Source: a virus
Taxonomy: Duplodnaviria > Caudoviricetes
Reading direction: 5' to 3' (one strand)
Length of the DNA: 43,541 nt
IMG/VR virus record: IMGVR_UViG_3300020016_000015
Span: 1-43,541 of that record
Of the stretch, positions 4,816-31,947 are shown one piece after another. A program made the position numbers and the translations under genes. The notes beneath the pieces were generated by a model. The model made no database searches. It saw only the letters and a program-made list of their open reading frames with translations, and was not told the origin of the DNA. Numbering within the stretch: position 1 is the stretch's first letter; each line of letters opens with the position of its first letter.

Positions 4816-5304
4816 ATGGACGATGAAAACATCCCGTCCGACTTAGTAGCCCTCCCGACTATGCCTTACAACGAGCGGCCAGCAGAACTGCCCCTGGACG
4901 TGGAAGAATGCCGCACCGCCCTTTGGATGGCGTCTGGCAACACCACGAAGGCGGCGGAACTCCTTAAGACCACATCCATTCGGTTACGCGCTTTCATCAG
5001 AAAGTCCGCTTATCTCACTGCAGAAATGCAGGAAGCGGCCGACCGTATGGTCGATCTGGCGGAAGCAAATGTCCTCGACGCTCTGAACGACGCAGAAGAC
5101 GCTTCGCGGCGCGACACGATGAGTAGATTTGTTCTCACCAATATCGGAAAGACGAGGGGGTGGGGCACCGGTAATTCGCCGAACGTAAACGTGAAGAACT
5201 CGGCGGGTGGGACCATTATTGTCCAATGGGGTGATGGTCAGCAATTCAGTAACGAGAAGACCATTGACGGAGAGGTAATAGACAATGAGTCAAGCGCAGC
5301 CTGA
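4816..5304 (+). CDS. terS: Terminase small subunit (HTH-containing)
   Basis: N-terminal HTH (ALWMASGNTTKAAELL), helical VDLAE..L and FVL...GKTRGW segments, upstream of TerL. Confidence 0.65.
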   Translation: MDDENIPSDLVALPTMPYNERPAELPLDVEECRTALWMASGNTTKAAELLKTTSIRLRAFIRKSAYLTAEMQEAADRMVDLAEANVLDALNDAEDASRRDTMSRFVLTNIGKTRGWGTGNSPNVNVKNSAGGTIIVQWGDGQQFSNEKTIDGEVIDNESSAA

Positions 5305-5518
5305 CGGTTACAGCTTGGGGGCACAACGGGTCCGCGAGTCGTTCAATCCGTCCAAAGACAGCGAAGTCGATTATGCGAAGCGGCACACCGCCGACCTGAT
5401 CGACTTCTGCGACAAGCACAAGCATCTTGACCCGCGCCTCGCGGCGCTCGCGATGACCGCTTACGAGGAAGCGGCGATGTGGGCGGTGAAGCTGGTTACG
5501 ACGCAGGTGCCGAAATGA
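5285..5518 (+). CDS. Acb2/Tad1-like helical hairpin protein (putative immune-signal sponge)
   Basis: LGAQRVRESFNPS...RLAALAMTAYEEAAMWAVK resembles the R..A.A.T..EEA.MW motif of Tad1/Acb2-fold proteins. Confidence 0.55.
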   Translation: MSQAQPDGYSLGAQRVRESFNPSKDSEVDYAKRHTADLIDFCDKHKHLDPRLAALAMTAYEEAAMWAVKLVTTQVPK

Positions 5519-5748
5519 ACCGGGGAACCATCGGCTGGGCTATCGATCAGATGCGGGATGGCGAGAAGGTCCAGCGCATCGGTTGGAACGGCAAGAACAT
5601 GTACATTGCCATCCAAAACCCCGATCGTAACTCCAAGATGACGCTCCCTTACGTCTACATGTTCACGGCGCAGGGGGACTTGATTCCGTGGTTGTGCTCG
5701 CAGGCCGATCTTCTCGCCAGAGACTGGCAAGTAGTGATCGAAACGTGA
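5515..5748 (+). CDS. DUF2829 / Tad2-like anti-defence protein
   Basis: AI..M..G.KV.R.GWNGK.M...PY....PW..SQ.D.LA.DW is the DUF2829 signature. Confidence 0.85.
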   Translation: MNRGTIGWAIDQMRDGEKVQRIGWNGKNMYIAIQNPDRNSKMTLPYVYMFTAQGDLIPWLCSQADLLARDWQVVIET

Positions 5749-25161: not shown

Positions 25162-26576
25162 TCCGGGTCCAGCTGAATATTGGTCTTGTAACCCCGGCCA
25201 AAGAATGAGAACACGGCTTGGGCTAGGCTCTCTTTCGCTTGGAGGGCAGCTGTAATTCGCTTGTCCAGCGGTGTTCCCCATAAGTCAATATACAAGCAAC
25301 TTTCAGCTGTCTGGCCGTGACGGTGAATTCGGTCTTCGATTTGGCTCCTATCATCGAGGGAGTAGCTGTTTTCGGCGAACACCATCGTGCTACACTTGTC
25401 GATGATATCTTCCCCGCCAAGCAAGGTGTGTCCGTATTTTCCAGCGCGAATTTGGACCAGAATAACCCGGCAGCTTGGATCACCATTGAACTTATCCTTC
25501 TGAGCCTGAATTTCGTCGGGCTTCATCATTCCCTTGATGAACGCTGGGTTGAATTCCTCCAGCGTCCTGGATAAAATCCCAAGCGTGTAACGGTGGGCGT
25601 AAGGTATCACCACCTTACCCTCGATTTCATCCTCCACGATCTGCTTAACCAACAAGAACCGAGGGTTCTCATGGGGGTGGACTAATTCCTCCACCGACTC
25701 GTCTTCCTTGATAATGAACCCGGACTGAATTTGGGCCAGTTTTATGTATTTCGTAATGAAAGCGTCCACAGTCACGTTTTCGGTGGCGCTAAGCCACACG
25801 ACAAAATCGTTCTCCATGCTCTGGTAAGTTCGCATCAAGTGAGGGCTGAGAACATACTGCCTCGAAGTATATATCTTCGGGGGCAGGTCGGTCCAGTCTT
25901 TCTTAGAGGCTCGGAAGATGAACCGCTCGATAGTGTCGGCCAGCAGTTCTTCGTTCTGCGATCCGATCACCTTCTTGCCCTTGAAACCACCCATCCGGCA
26001 GAACGTTGTTTTAAACGGCCAGAACTTGCTGGTAACGGCGCCGACTATTCGCATCTGCGCCCACAAGTCGTGAGGTCCCTGCGTTACGGGCTTGCCGGAC
26101 AGGAGCCTCCGATATCTGAACACGGCGGCGATTTTCATCGCGGCCTTGGTCTGCAGACTGTCGTGTGTTTTCACCTGCACCGATTCGTCCAGCACCAACA
26201 TCGCGTTCCGCGCGTGTACGAACTGGGTTATGTACCCTTGGACGGCTTCCTTGCGGATTGCCTCATAATTGATGATCAGAACCGGCGGTCTGTCGTACTT
26301 CTTATTTGCGAATTTGGCGTTTTCGTAGTCCGCACCGGAATTGAAAACATGGGCGTCCACGTCAATGCCGTGCTTCTTGATTTCGTCCAGCCATCCGGTC
26401 TTGAACGAATTAGGGCACACAACCACGAGCCGGGTGGCGCTCTTGGTCTTCACCATTTCAGTGAATTCGGTCAGGACCGTCAGGGTTTTCCCGAGGCCCA
26501 TTTCCATGTAGTAGGCGAACCCAGGCTTACCACTAGCCGCCTTGAGTGCTTTCTGTTGAACTTTCAGTAACTGCAT
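25158..26576 (-). CDS. SNF2-family helicase
   Basis: MEMGLGKT, VVVCP, INYE, LDES, LSGKP and Q.EDRIHRHGQ motifs. Confidence 0.92.
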   Translation of the reverse strand: MQLLKVQQKALKAASGKPGFAYYMEMGLGKTLTVLTEFTEMVKTKSATRLVVVCPNSFKTGWLDEIKKHGIDVDAHVFNSGADYENAKFANKKYDRPPVLIINYEAIRKEAVQGYITQFVHARNAMLVLDESVQVKTHDSLQTKAAMKIAAVFRYRRLLSGKPVTQGPHDLWAQMRIVGAVTSKFWPFKTTFCRMGGFKGKKVIGSQNEELLADTIERFIFRASKKDWTDLPPKIYTSRQYVLSPHLMRTYQSMENDFVVWLSATENVTVDAFITKYIKLAQIQSGFIIKEDESVEELVHPHENPRFLLVKQIVEDEIEGKVVIPYAHRYTLGILSRTLEEFNPAFIKGMMKPDEIQAQKDKFNGDPSCRVILVQIRAGKYGHTLLGGEDIIDKCSTMVFAENSYSLDDRSQIEDRIHRHGQTAESCLYIDLWGTPLDKRITAALQAKESLAQAVFSFFGRGYKTNIQLDPD

Positions 26577-27117
26577 GTTCCCCTCTTCTGAACGATTCGC
26601 TGAGTGTACGCTCCGTCAAGGCCATCCACTCATTAACTCTCTCGAATATCTTGTAGTCCCATTGAATTCGCTTCCTTACGTAGTTCTGGATAATGAGACG
26701 CATTTCATTCTTGTGGGTCGACACATACCGGTTCCCCATCAAGCACTCCACCGACAAGAAGTGGAACATTTCCATCATGTCGGCCAGCTTTACTATTTCT
26801 CTGTATCTGACATCTGCGTGATCATACCACGCCGAGCCCACCGTGTCAATCTCTATTTCAGCTATGGTGATGTAAGGCTTTGCTGTGGAGGGAATATCCC
26901 CGGTGAGCGATTCCCTGTCGTCATGGTGGAGGGCAGCTTGGGATAACATACATATTTCTGCCAAGCCGTCTATACCGAACCACGGGGCGATCCGGGTACA
27001 TATTCGCTCCACGTTGAAGCAATGCTCCGCCACGGATTGAGTTTGAATAGTAGGAACGATAGCCCACCGCTTAATCGTGCTTAGGCGGGCATCCAGTTCG
27101 TTGAATACCGTCGTCAT
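26533..27117 (-). CDS. datZ: HD-domain dATP triphosphohydrolase (DatZ-like)
   Basis: KRW.IV.T...QSVAEH...ALHHD..E..TGDIPS..K...VKLAD; adjacent to purZ. Confidence 0.82.
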   Translation of the reverse strand: MTTVFNELDARLSTIKRWAIVPTIQTQSVAEHCFNVERICTRIAPWFGIDGLAEICMLSQAALHHDDRESLTGDIPSTAKPYITIAEIEIDTVGSAWYDHADVRYREIVKLADMMEMFHFLSVECLMGNRYVSTHKNEMRLIIQNYVRKRIQWDYKIFERVNEWMALTERTLSESFRRGEHAVTESSTESTQGG

Positions 27118-27406
27118 GTTCTACTCCCTGCATCCGAAGAGCCACATAGGCTAAGAACGAAAAGTTGGCTTGATCCATCAATTCGATGAGTGAGTTCTCG
27201 TTGAACTTATCTTCGCGCAGCTGGTCTTCGAACTCCACGATTTCGGCGCGGAGCAAATCCATAATGCGCGGTAGCGTTTCCATCGTGGGGGTATCTTTGT
27301 GGGAATTCTTATCGAGTTTAGCGATCATCCCGGCGATGAACGGTATAATGTACGGGCGGAATTTTTTCAGCGAGTCTGGCAACGTGACGATTAGGATACT
27401 AGTCAT
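27071..27406 (-). CDS. mazZ: MazG-like nucleotide pyrophosphohydrolase (MazZ-like, putative dGTP to dGMP)
   Basis: All-alpha E-x2-E...E-x2-D motif (AEIVEF...IELMDQANF), located between purZ and datZ. Confidence 0.6.
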   Translation of the reverse strand: MTSILIVTLPDSLKKFRPYIIPFIAGMIAKLDKNSHKDTPTMETLPRIMDLLRAEIVEFEDQLREDKFNENSLIELMDQANFSFLAYVALRMQGVEHDDGIQRTGCPPKHD

Positions 27407-28457
27407 GGCTCCACCAATTCGAACGTTCGATGTCTTCAATCTTTGGGCCGAACCCAACTAGAAGATCAAACTTCTTGCTGAGCACGGCCGACGCTTCGTG
27501 GAGCCCGTCGATGAATTGGATGTGTTCCTCGGGAGTGAAATAGTCCATGTGGCTTGCGAACACGTAATCGGGGTCGTTGGCGACGCAAGCCTCGAGGAAT
27601 TGGGTCATGGAGAAAGTGGCCACGCGACGGACCCTCTTCGTCACCGTGGTTATTTCAGGCTCACGTTTCAGTGCCTCCCATGTGGTTTCCTGCTGATCAA
27701 AATACCAAGTACCACTAGAATGCCCATCCACGTCGCCAACCCGAATGGGGTATGATCGGATGGCCATGTAAGTACGAGCAAGATGCCTAGGAGGAATTCT
27801 AGCATCGGCTAACCCCTGCATTACCGTGCACTCACGGCTTGTTACTTTGGGATAGAAGCGCGAATTGATACCTAAGCTGAAACCCTGGGCCACTTCCATG
27901 AAATAGGCGTGGTGCTCGGGTTCGATTGCGTGATCCATAAGCATCACGTTCTTCGCGACGCGGCCGAGGGATCGGTCAGCGATAGCATTCGGTTCCCTGC
28001 GGATTTTTCGCACCAACGCCGCGCCGGTTCCGCTCCGGGTGCCAGCGACCGCGCCGATTGACCCCTGTTCTTCCTCGCGCTTATCCTCGTCCGTCACGAT
28101 AGCGGCGTTATGGTGCACGAAGATTGGGATATAAGGATACCTCTCGGCTTCCTCTTTCAGTATGTCGCGGTCAATCACCGCCCCGGCGGATAAATACACC
28201 GGGATAGAAAGTCCCAATTTGTGGAGGGACACAGCGAATGTGGGCAGTTGTTTGAGTACAATTTTCTCGTCGCCGAAATAACTGGTGTGTCCGCTATTCG
28301 GTCCCCCGCTGTAAATAGCGCCAGCGAAATTGAAAGCATGTGGGGCAAGATTTTTATACGCTTGCCATGCGAGCCACGCTGAAAGTGCGCCCTTGCCCGT
28401 GGAGCCGAACTGGCCGTCAACGACGCAGTGGACCCCTTTGTTCTGGAACAAGGTCAT
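27399..28457 (-). CDS. purZ: PurZ-like 2-amino-deoxyadenylosuccinate synthetase
   Basis: DGQFGSTGKG (Ser in place of the PurA catalytic Asp), NSGH, E.AQGFSL, YP..TSR, YPIRV, TTVTKR.RR; short 352-aa form. Confidence 0.92.
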   Translation of the reverse strand: MTLFQNKGVHCVVDGQFGSTGKGALSAWLAWQAYKNLAPHAFNFAGAIYSGGPNSGHTSYFGDEKIVLKQLPTFAVSLHKLGLSIPVYLSAGAVIDRDILKEEAERYPYIPIFVHHNAAIVTDEDKREEEQGSIGAVAGTRSGTGAALVRKIRREPNAIADRSLGRVAKNVMLMDHAIEPEHHAYFMEVAQGFSLGINSRFYPKVTSRECTVMQGLADARIPPRHLARTYMAIRSYPIRVGDVDGHSSGTWYFDQQETTWEALKREPEITTVTKRVRRVATFSMTQFLEACVANDPDYVFASHMDYFTPEEHIQFIDGLHEASAVLSKKFDLLVGFGPKIEDIERSNWWSHD

Positions 28458-28789
28458 TAGTCGGCCTGCTTGTTCGCGTGGTCGGGGTGGAGCATCGCGG
28501 CGAGGGCGGTGTAACCCGCCCCATCGGTGAAATTGTCCTCGGAATAGCCGTACGTCGAACGGGCCGTCTTCACCATGGCCATCATTTGAGCGACGTCATA
28601 AGGGCGAAGTTTAACCTCGCCACGGATAGTGAACGAATGGTTGATGTAGACCGACCACAAATCGGCGATCATGCCGAATGATCGCTCGGTGTGGCCGTGT
28701 TCCTGCCCCCGCTTGCGGATAGCGTCGCCAGCGTCGAGCAGTACTTTCTCGGGGACAGTCAAATCGGTGGGCTTGATATTCGGGTTCAT
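28457..28789 (-). CDS. DUF6378-like protein
   Basis: R...HG....F..IA.LWS.Y...VA.MM...K.AR.....D...D.AGY. Confidence 0.75.
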   Translation of the reverse strand: MNPNIKPTDLTVPEKVLLDAGDAIRKRGQEHGHTERSFGMIADLWSVYINHSFTIRGEVKLRPYDVAQMMAMVKTARSTYGYSEDNFTDGAGYTALAAMLHPDHANKQAD

Positions 28790-29423: not shown

Positions 29424-29807
29424 TTATTTTTTATTCCACGGCTTAAAGAGTCTGATTTCGTCGAGGCTTGGCCATTCGCCAGTGAAACGTAACGCCCGGT
29501 CGTCGATCGTTAGGAAGGCCGACGGCTTGTAGTCCGGCCATTCAATTTCGTCAAGCCATTTCAAATCCTCGTCGGAGTGTGCAGCTTCTTCGGCGCAGTA
29601 ACGCAACCACTCCTGCATCGCTTCGAGGCCGCCTTCTTGATGACTGCGGCTCGAATAGATAGCCACGGTGTATTCTTTCACCGCTTCGCGTAAGAAGGCT
29701 ATAGCACCTGGAACCGGCGGGTCCGAAACGATAGACGCGCCTTTCCAAGGGCTTGTGTACGAGTGGATCACGCCGTCGAAGTCTAAGCATAGAGTGGGTT
29801 TAATCAT
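29424..29807 (-). CDS. HAD-superfamily phosphatase/nucleotidase
   Basis: LDFDGVI motif I, SSR motif II, KP...IDDR motifs III/IV. Confidence 0.82.
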   Translation of the reverse strand: MIKPTLCLDFDGVIHSYTSPWKGASIVSDPPVPGAIAFLREAVKEYTVAIYSSRSHQEGGLEAMQEWLRYCAEEAAHSDEDLKWLDEIEWPDYKPSAFLTIDDRALRFTGEWPSLDEIRLFKPWNKK

Positions 29808-29964
29808 TTCGCATTTCTCCCTTGTATTCTGCGTCGCTTTCTTCGTCTTGGACTTTTTCGAAAGTTTCACAGCCTTCAGTTTCGCACATGAAGTATACCC
29901 CCATCCCGCCACCGGCAAGGCCGTACCCCATTTTCATTTCCTTACCGCATTTTGGGCAAAGCAT
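29800..29964 (-). CDS. Small Zn-ribbon protein (54 aa), below the ORF-track cutoff
   Basis: MLCPKCGKEMKMGYGLAGGGMGVYFMCETEGC...; coupled to both neighbours. Confidence 0.7.
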   Translation of the reverse strand: MLCPKCGKEMKMGYGLAGGGMGVYFMCETEGCETFEKVQDEESDAEYKGEMRND

Positions 29965-30161
29965 TATTCCTTCTCCTTTAGTATCTTATGGACCCCGAGG
30001 AATTCGGTGGATTCCTTCCTATAGACGTGCACGACACGGGTCCCCATTTGTTGCAACACAACGCCTTCCATTCCCTGCAGCGTCGTATAAGTTCCGACCA
30101 GAACCCCGATGAACCCGTCGTGCTTAGCCTTATACACATCGTGTTCAACCACATTACTCAT
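29964..30161 (-). CDS. Hypothetical protein
   Basis: 65-aa ORF coupled to the polymerase stop. Confidence 0.65.
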   Translation of the reverse strand: MSNVVEHDVYKAKHDGFIGVLVGTYTTLQGMEGVVLQQMGTRVVHVYRKESTEFLGVHKILKEKE

Positions 30162-31947
30162 CGTACTTGTCCAGCTTGCTGCCGTAAGACGCTCGAGCCC
30201 AATCCGGCCCAGACCCCAAACCGAATGGAATAGGGACGGACAGTTTCAGTTCGTCGGCGACGTGTTCAACGATGCCAATTAGCTCGGCTACTTCGTGCCC
30301 CGGATCGCGCTGCCAAAGCAAACTGTCGTGAATGGTGAGCAGCATCTGAACCTTGTCGGGGTACACATCTTCGTACTGGCAAGCCCGGAGCAGGCTTAAT
30401 TTCAGGTGTTCACCGCCCACGTTCTGAATAATGCGCGACACGGCGCGATATGCGAACCGTGGGTTATCACAGTAAGCGCGCCTGCCGAGAATAGTCTTGA
30501 CATAGCCCCGCCGCTTGAATGTCTGTACAGCCAACTGTTGGAACTGACCAATCTTGGGGAACGCGTCGCTAAGGAAGGCGGAGTGTGCCGCGCGTGCTCG
30601 CTCCAACGGCCAACGCATGTGCCCAGACAGGGTGGGCGGGGACATCATAGTTAGCATCCCCATCGACAGTCGCTTTGCTACCTCGCGGTCTAGGTTAAGA
30701 ATTTGCGAGGCTCTATCGTGGATATCCATAGTTCCATTTCGGTATCCTTCTGTGAGCACCGGATCACCCGAATAATGAGTGAATAATCGTGGTTCTTGTT
30801 GCTTTGCATCTGCTTCTTCGAAGACGAATCCTTCATCAGGGACAACAAGCCTTCGCACAACTCTTCCCACTTCGATGTTTCGCTTGGGGAAAGCTTGTAA
30901 GTTAGGTTCGGAACATGAAAATCTAACGCCCGCAACTCCGTAGTCATCCGATTTGGATTGGTTGAGTATAGGATGAACTCGTCCGTTAACGTTGTGAGTA
31001 TCGATGAGCGGCGCGATGAAACTGTCCCGCGCCTTTTCGAGCCGCCGGACCGTGAGGATCGCTTGCCCGATGTCATTTGTTTCCAACCATTTTTCTGTAA
31101 ATGAGAACGCCCCGTTGTCGGTCTTGGCGAAGCGCTCGTCAGTGAAACCGTTAGCCCTAAACAGAGCCTCGACTGATTTCGGTGACCGCGCGTTGAACCC
31201 TGGAACAAATACCTTGCTGGCCTCCTTGATAGCTTCGTCGACGTCGACGACTACCTTCTGTGAGTATTCGGGGTCGATCTTAAGTCCCCGGTTGTGCATC
31301 CGCGCCACATAAGGCAGCAGATCGCACTCAAGCTTCCACGGAGCCCTGATTTCATCCCCGTCCAGAATTCGCTGTTGCTTTGCCCATAGTTCGAGCGTTG
31401 AAATGCCGTCGCCGGTCGCGTAATCGACCACGAGGGGGTGGTCCCCTTCCAGGCGCCAGAAATTCCCCATCTGCTTCTTCTCGGGGAGGCCACCGAACCT
31501 ACGCGCCAATTCGGCGTATAGTTCTGCCCCCTTCTTGGGGGTGACGCCGTGGCGAATACAGCACTCTTCTAGGCTGTACCCCTGTGTTATGTCACTGATG
31601 ATCGCCTCGTTGATCATCGTGTCTTCTAGTGGAGAGCCCAGAACAATCCCATGCCTAAGAGTGAACCTAAGATCAAAGCCCAGATTATGCCCAACAGTCC
31701 GAAAACCGAGTCGACTACGAGCCCTAAAAGCGCCATCAAGTTCGCGTTCGAATTCCTCTGCGTTGGGAACATTGCCCCCTCCTTCATGTCTGAGTGGGAC
31801 GTATATTGAATATTTATCATTCGTGATGACATGGCCGCAAATCCTGTCCTTGATGGTTAGACCGGTGGTTTCGGTGTCGTAGGCGATAGGCCCAGAATTA
31901 CTTTCAACGATGTCGAGCGCCAACTGTGGTTCAATGCATTGTATCAT
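30154..31947 (-). CDS. dpoZ: Family A DNA polymerase with 3'-5' exonuclease (DpoZ-like)
   Basis: DTETTG, HN..FD, YA..D exonuclease motifs; PNLQ; motif A D..QQEPR; motif C HDS; no 5'-3' exonuclease domain; linked to purZ. Confidence 0.8.
   Translation of the reverse strand: MIQCIEPQLALDIVESNSGPIAYDTETTGLTIKDRICGHVITNDKYSIYVPLRHEGGGNVPNAEEFERELDGAFRARSRLGFRTVGHNLGFDLRFTLRHGIVLGSPLEDTMINEAIISDITQGYSLEECCIRHGVTPKKGAELYAELARRFGGLPEKKQMGNFWRLEGDHPLVVDYATGDGISTLELWAKQQRILDGDEIRAPWKLECDLLPYVARMHNRGLKIDPEYSQKVVVDVDEAIKEASKVFVPGFNARSPKSVEALFRANGFTDERFAKTDNGAFSFTEKWLETNDIGQAILTVRRLEKARDSFIAPLIDTHNVNGRVHPILNQSKSDDYGVAGVRFSCSEPNLQAFPKRNIEVGRVVRRLVVPDEGFVFEEADAKQQEPRLFTHYSGDPVLTEGYRNGTMDIHDRASQILNLDREVAKRLSMGMLTMMSPPTLSGHMRWPLERARAAHSAFLSDAFPKIGQFQQLAVQTFKRRGYVKTILGRRAYCDNPRFAYRAVSRIIQNVGGEHLKLSLLRACQYEDVYPDKVQMLLTIHDSLLWQRDPGHEVAELIGIVEHVADELKLSVPIPFGLGSGPDWARASYGSKLDKYDE

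Follow-up and report, generated by a model that had tools for sequence, protein, structure and literature searches.

The window (the whole stretch of DNA analysed here, a virus record of 43,541 nucleotides) carries a family A DNA polymerase that is likely, from comparison of sequences and loci, to be a third sequence type of purZ-linked PolA and to prefer Z. In the leading explanation, for which we judge the chances to be even, the changed residue at the position of Klenow Tyr766 (Thr or Ser) would be what makes the polymerase prefer Z.

On the plus strand of the 43.5-kb record lie genes for a portal and a capsid of SU10 type, and its minus strand carries a replication block with primase, Pam3 gp33/gp34-like proteins, PolA, DUF6378, PurZ, a 128-aa ORF, an HD hydrolase and an SNF2 helicase. 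Soil metagenomes from 13 studies contain nearly the same DNA (5 of the rows are possibly the window's own source), and no RNA dataset carrying it is among the matches listed. The features discussed below are:

30154..31947 (-): family A DNA polymerase (3'-5' exonuclease plus polymerase, 597 aa) of the Wolominvirus-OH-like Z-phage lineage; Pfam DNA_pol_A and exo1
30922..30930 (-): pre-motif A 'TGR', here G-V-R, with the Arg (R668) kept; alignment
30787..30810 (-): motif A, D380-R387, with the catalytic Asp and the steric-gate Glu (E710 equivalent) kept; alignment
30640..30687 (-): motif B / O helix, R421-S436, with M429 (F762), T433 (Y766) and M434 (G767); alignment
30421..30438 (-): motif 6, S504-N509, with N845 to Ser, Q849 kept and G850 to Asn; alignment
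30322..30330 (-): motif C, H-D-S, with E883 to Ser as in phiVC8 and Wayne DpoZ; alignment
28457..28789 (-): DUF6378 protein, directly upstream of purZ in most of the lineage; family match and locus comparison
27399..28457 (-): PurZ-type synthetase, with S19/F17/T270 (phiVC8 S14/F12/T262) kept and S-H-M-D instead of N-F-x-N at the NTP site
27071..27457 (-): MazZ-2-like (MazG-type) nucleotide pyrophosphohydrolase, the 128-aa ORF; profile match
26533..27117 (-): DatZ-like HD dATP triphosphohydrolase with a W-x-I signature; Pfam YfbR-like/HD_3, PHROG 7076

The polymerase gene

Translation of the polymerase probably starts at the ATG at 31947, which overlaps the upstream stop and gives 597 aa, in agreement with database protein P0001. 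The product matches Pfam PF00476 with 145.7 bits (cut-off 34.3) and is 23-25% identical to Klenow. In the 597-aa numbering, the codons of G340-V341-R342 lie at 30922-30930, D380 at 30808-30810 and E385 at 30793-30795; those of motif B lie at 30685-30687 (R421), 30673-30675 (K425), 30661-30663 (M429), 30649-30651 (T433) and 30646-30648 (M434), and those of motifs 6 and C at 30436-30438 (S504), 30421-30426 (Q508-N509) and 30322-30330 (H540-D541-S542). We take K425, M429, T433 and M434 to be the equivalents of Klenow K758, F762, Y766 and G767, and G340/V341, S504, N509 and S542 to be those of T666/G667, N845, G850 and E883 (columns aligned against bacterial Pol I).

The catalytic machinery appears intact. 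The window polymerase keeps the catalytic Asp of motifs A and C, R754/K758, E710, R668 and Q849, and has the Klenow fold with the 3'-5' exonuclease motifs (DxE, D, YxxxD). The predicted structure is a confident Klenow-fold model (pLDDT 90.5) with a helix at 421-432; among its fold matches is the Y714S structure 3HPO (Bacillus fragment), while 7PBK is not one of the 50 listed, which carries no weight for or against. A sequence-only reading of this DNA had quoted several motif strings, all of which are present in the ORF at 30154-31947, and had stated that the catalytic Asp of motifs A and C and the motif B Arg/Lys are kept, which the alignment bears out. Its suggestion of an active enzyme gains support from the intact polymerase and exonuclease residues and from the structure prediction it had named as a check; on this sequence and model evidence the enzyme looks active.

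Pocket residues across polymerase families

One departure lies in the O helix. Thr-Met in place of Tyr-Gly at 766-767, noted in the earlier reading, is found in the window polymerase as described, and T/S-M at these positions, SR..QN and HDS are found in 120/120 homologues listed (64-100% identity, window protein included). At the Y766 column these 120 have 117 Thr and 3 Ser, and 56 further homologues have 49 Thr and 7 Ser; in all, 166 Thr and 10 Ser account for 176/176 homologues, which are 57-100% identical to their query, with neither Tyr nor Phe. The G767 column of the same 176 holds Met in 168 and Gly in 8; Met is therefore not obligatory. The V341 column is variable (V 70, A 46, G 2 and S 2 among the 120 homologues listed). 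Ser for E883 in motif C is a further departure, absent from the earlier list.

Other families differ at these columns. Bacterial Pol I has Tyr-Gly in all 77 sequences that cover the motif (80 loci examined), as do 7/7 reference phage PolAs without a purZ seen; for Kimi (whole genome) and ZCSE2 (50 of 54 kb) this status means that purZ is unannotated, and for the other reference phages that their genera are missing from the ten that the PurZ search names (five singletons there are unnamed). The phiVC8-like enzymes have Phe-Asn in 7/7, and Wayne has Phe-Gly. With Thr/Ser in the lineage and Phe in both DpoZ groups, all three sampled purZ-linked PolA groups have thus changed the Y766 residue. Departures described for phiVC8 DpoZ are L455, F459, G548 and S583, of which F459 is the sole change common to both DpoZ groups (PMC8599892); the positions of L455, F459 and G548 are those of M429, T433 and S504 in the window polymerase.

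By alignment, the loss of the aromatic ring at 766, Met at 762, Ser at 845, Asn at 850 and the loss of G667 are new in the lineage, and its pocket residues are unlike those of every characterised DpoZ. The earlier proposal of a pocket remodelled beyond characterised DpoZ enzymes stands to this extent, and the changes travel with purZ. As worded, however, its novelty was overstated: phiVC8-like DpoZ already has Phe-Asn for Tyr-Gly, Gly for N845 and often Ser for E883, and QQEPR occurs in a non-Z phage. The objection that such substitutions are common in non-Z phage polymerases applies to QQE(PR), found in PolA of Pseudomonas phage ZC01 (with Q-Q-E in HTVC027P), and to a varied T666, but not to the Y766 change (0/7). 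We rejected QQEPR and the altered Thr of TGR as Z markers, both being present in non-Z phage PolAs. No description of the Thr/Ser motif was found in the literature searched, a search that took in few subscription papers.

Two smaller observations concern the same helix. In a Ser-type subgroup (L121, L122 and 5/56 deeper homologues) R754 is aligned with Tyr; a shifted alignment may account for this, or the O helix may have changed once more. The deep-branching L090 and L132 have Gly after Thr (T-G), so that Y766T and G767M are separable steps.

Relationship to known polymerases

The lineage forms its own clade (100/100 support) on a long stem of 1.19-1.64 changes per column. The best NCBIfam model of the window polymerase is NF038380 (DpoZ), with 237.9 bits (OH, 253.2; cut-off 500), and its best PDB sequence match is phiVC8 DpoZ (7PBK). 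A mixture-model quick tree of 34 rows places the lineage as sister to phiVC8-like DpoZ (SH-aLRT 88); in a careful tree of 20 rows the phiVC8-like enzymes group with JL001-like ones instead (71/50). AU tests on the 20 rows reject neither placement (lineage with phiVC8-like, p=0.365; lineage with JL001-like, p=0.052). By their features, members of the lineage fall outside both published DpoZ clusters, and they may share a common ancestor with cluster #18.

The nearest isolate is phage OH (Wolominvirus OH, MT028492; Ochrobactrum phage vB_OspP_OH), whose polymerase PhiOH_p28 is 58% and capsid 72% identical. OH shares the order pol-nuclease-DUF6378-purZ-mazZ-2-datZ-helicase, SRIIQN and HDS with the window, but has Ser-Met rather than Thr-Met at Y766-G767 and NFMN rather than SHMD in PurZ. 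It has been named as a Z-cluster phage (PMC8342488), and PMC10201439 includes its polymerase in the PolA dataset; in the portions of these two papers available to us its motifs are not discussed, and the available part of the OH description (PMC7139368) holds no discussion of polymerase motifs or DNA modification. In PMC12884076 a single group holds the polymerases of PurZ phages from NCBI; this group may include OH, which the NCBI dataset likely held within 'DpoZ-2', and the supplement text does not name OH, the trees being given as figures. The phiDpoZ1/2 of 10.1101/2025.10.22.683976 may also belong to the lineage.

The phiVC8-like DpoZ (cluster #18, DpoZ-2, NF038380, PDB 7PBK; including SH-Ab 15497 and PMBT28) resemble the lineage in lying beside purZ-mazZ-datZ, in an intact exonuclease, in a loop at insertion 1, in HDS (phiVC8), and in having lost Y766 and G767 and carrying a small residue, not Asn, at N845 and Tyr at R841. 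They differ in overall sequence (27-29% identity), in Phe-Asn against Thr/Ser-Met, Leu against Met (or Leu) at 762 and Gly against Ser at 845, and the lineage lacks TGR and phiVC8 insertions 2 and 3. Wayne-like DpoZ (cluster #19, DpoZ-1) shares the loss of Y766 (Phe), HDS and a purZ-type neighbour, a PurZ0 with Asp at phiVC8 N297, but is a distant polymerase on a long branch that keeps G767 and N845, has Phe at B4 and a D29-like ancestry, and uses DutZ/DmtZ/DUF5664, none of which match in the lineage. The phiJL001-like PolAs (R5C, ZC01, ZCSE2, HTVC027P, Kimi and PSASB_03, stand-ins that our trees would assign to cluster #11) have an insertion-1-like loop and a variable T666 like the lineage, whereas 6/6 keep Tyr-Gly, N845, G850 and HDE.

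Enzymes of the nucleotide pool

The window PurZ scores 207.2 bits with NF038379 (cut-off 300) and is nearer to phiVC8 PurZ (E 9e-44) than to PurZ0 7VF6 (4e-22). It has Ser for PurA Asp13 and the dGMP-pocket residues (S19, F17 and T270; phiVC8 F12, T262), and the ATP-selecting N294-F295-x-N297 of phiVC8 PurZ is replaced by S302-H303-M-D305. PurZ of the window's subclade (L001-L024 and kin) has S-H-x-D, with Asp as in PurZ0, and one other locus (L086) independently has T-F-L-D. This Asp tracks datZ loss: datZ-minus loci have 20 Asp and 3 Asn, datZ-plus loci 6 Asp and 19 Asn, the loci being non-redundant but related. The pattern suggests, at the level of sequence, a return to GTP use within the PurZ branch in this subclade; a PurZ of the SHMD type may use GTP and would then not drain dATP.

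The 128-aa ORF belongs to a homologue profile that matches OH p33 (E 7e-17) and phiVC8 p26 (2e-8) in a seven-sequence test set; MazZ-2 of OH is named in PMC8342488. The HD protein matches Pfam YfbR-like/HD_3 and PHROG 7076 (dATP triphosphohydrolase), and W-x-I was seen by eye; the DatZ criterion is W20/I22 (10.1101/2025.10.22.683976). datZ is present in the window, and its distribution in the lineage is patchy. When loci are collapsed at 95% identity of the polymerase, 59 remain: 25 with datZ, 23 without it between mazZ-2 and the helicase, and 11 too short to score. Eight changes are needed on the tree, at least five of them forced by well-supported branches. datZ is also absent from 8/8 complete genomes with a datZ-less locus (5/5 positive controls detected), so the burden of adenine exclusion falls elsewhere: in such phages the polymerase, MazZ-2 or DUF6378 must carry it, unless substitution is partial.

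A replacement dATPase was sought among known families. Queries with DutZ, DmtZ-DutZ, DUF5664 and DUF550 gave no tblastn match in lineage genomes (the Wayne and Archimedes queries having no positive control), and 119 ORFs gave no Pfam match to one. We rejected DUF6378 as a DUF5664/DUF550-like dNTPase, since profile comparison with Wayne DUF5664 and SH-Ab DUF5664-DUF550 gave a probability below 1%; it had no PDB match, and the Atlas returned DUF6378 clusters only. In nearly every locus of the lineage DUF6378 immediately precedes purZ (L086 and L132 lack it), and it conserves H-G, D-x-A, K-x-x-R and D-N-x-x-D-x-x-G-Y; it is a candidate nucleotide-binding helper.

The datZ-less complete relatives (G001-G003, G006-G010) retain purZ and mazZ-2. 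Many of these have an ORF of 54-66 aa between mazZ-2 and the helicase (e.g. L007:13715-14264), ribbon-helix-helix by eye, with no Pfam match. Five loci (L055-L058, L069) have purZ and datZ and no MazZ-2 match, so pool enzymes have been lost in both directions.

Linkage to purZ and possible signs of Z-DNA

purZ lies downstream of the polymerase in 75/78 lineage loci and 3/3 later ones (78/81); in the three others the contig stops before the purZ position. Of the three viral locus searches, two relied on patterns from motif B and were blind to exceptions; the other was built on exo I and motif C and kept the best 80 of 230. Bacterial genomes were scanned over 25 of 64 parts, and the 80 loci kept out of 197 include no lineage member. 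The co-occurrence of motif and purZ is one event, not many, because the long stem gives both one shared origin.

Restriction-site content offers a hint. G/C-only 6-bp palindromes are avoided more than dZ-protected sites (13 sites, enzyme list from the supplement of PMC12944874) in 15/15 lineage genomes, datZ-less ones included, with ratios that run from 1.4, the value of the window, to 6.8. The ratios are 2.2 and 2.5 for the known Z phages SH-Ab 15497 and phiVC8, and 0.5-1.1 for five controls that are unmatched in hosts, GC content and lifestyles and of which three carry integrases. This avoidance fits Z-DNA, also in the datZ-less genomes. Four-base palindromes give no clear Z pattern in the lineage, and avoidance of A-containing sites within dZ-sensitive degenerate sites is not above that of controls. 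SmaI, SacI, BamHI, BglII and KpnI sites are missing from the window; CCGG is absent from SH-Ab 15497, and GATC is nearly absent from phiVC8.

How the polymerase might select Z

A mechanism for the Thr/Ser position is suggested by Klenow Y766A, in which closing is weakened for A:T and T:A but not for G:C: K2 is 1.0 for A-dTTP (6.1 in the wild type), 0.90 for T-dATP and 8.9 for G-dCTP (against 6.1), with Kd2 of 79 and 42 uM against 0.11 uM; Y766F behaves like the wild type, and Y766A does not (PMC3715850). Klenow Y766A/Y766S and Bacillus Y714S lose the aromatic ring at the position altered in the lineage, but they are laboratory-made single mutants of canonical enzymes, and mutators. Selection through the Y766 position is favoured by Thr or Ser in every homologue, Phe in both known DpoZ groups, the purZ linkage, the absence of datZ from 23/48 scorable non-redundant loci and the palindrome hint. 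Against it, the kinetic precedent is Ala in an enzyme 23-25% identical, and C-dGTP is not in that paper's main text; phiVC8 selectivity has been argued not to come from any single polymerase-domain change, backtracking being proposed instead (PMC8599892); the B4 Phe is considered unlikely to matter (PMC10201439); and S-2L manages without a selective polymerase.

Alternatively, the polymerase may merely tolerate Z, its odd motifs being drift or compensation on a long branch, with adenine excluded, wholly or in part, by pool enzymes (DatZ where it occurs, or else MazZ-2 or DUF6378). We consider this possible though on balance unlikely. The long stem is what it would lead one to expect, S-2L and Klenow are precedents for non-selective copying of Z, the DUF550 enzyme of SH-Ab 15497 hydrolyses dATP and dGTP, so that MazZ could cover for DatZ, and DUF6378 precedes purZ in most loci. 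But drift accords poorly with a change of the same residue in both characterised DpoZ groups and with Thr/Ser being held across homologues as little as 57% identical to their query; and the five datZ loci without a MazZ-2 match show the pool enzymes to be patchy where the polymerase signature is not.

In its fullest form, selection through the Y766 position would mean that DpoZ evolved a third time, independently, with a pocket in which Thr/Ser for Tyr selects three-bond pairs directly as the fingers close, so strictly that about half of the lineage could drop the dATPase DatZ. We regard this full statement as doubtful; if true, this would be the first case of a Z-specific polymerase that owes its selectivity to one portable site, and OH is cultured.

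Slightly less probable still is Z selection by the phiVC8-type route (backtracking, and proofreading by pair strength), the motif changes being inherited from a DpoZ ancestor rather than acting as the filter. The PDB and NCBIfam matches, the residues shared at N845, R841 and 766-767, HDS, the sister placement in the quick tree and the AU result all point this way; yet phiVC8 insertions 2 and 3 are missing, the careful tree pairs phiVC8-like with JL001-like enzymes, if weakly, and Thr lacks the aromatic ring that Phe keeps, a difference that matters in Klenow, where Y766F is close to wild type and Y766A is not.

The earlier reading had also raised an additional modified base, and a pocket remodelled for a second base or a Z derivative would account for more altered pocket positions than in known DpoZ, for the divergent NTP site of PurZ and for several small window ORFs without a family match. 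We think it very improbable: no methyltransferase, glycosyltransferase, deazaguanine, thymidylate-synthase or kinase family, and hence no candidate base-modifying enzyme, was found in the 47+12 window ORFs scanned or in 119 of 187 short ORFs of three relatives, PurZ retains its dGMP-pocket residues, and the PSASB_03 polymerase, beside queuosine-pathway genes, keeps Tyr-Gly. Least credible of all is an assembly error, which the earlier reading had allowed for and which we reject, or a decayed, inactive gene: the motifs are conserved in the 176 homologues and in cultured phage OH, the ORF and catalytic residues are intact, and in 4/4 independent soil runs (4 studies, none flagged as a possible source) no letter difference or indel is listed over 30100-31100 (each piece covers part of the stretch; one run covers 26/30 bins).

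Other genes of the window

Two putative anti-defence genes lie next to each other ahead of the terminase on the plus strand of the window: an Acb2/Tad1 hairpin gene at 5285-5518 (E 2.5e-10), a family also present in G001-G003, and a Tad2-like gene at 5479-5748 (E 6e-23). Between the polymerase and the Z genes, at 29424-29918 (-), is a HAD-family phosphatase-like ORF of sporadic occurrence, present in 1/25 other loci (L021).
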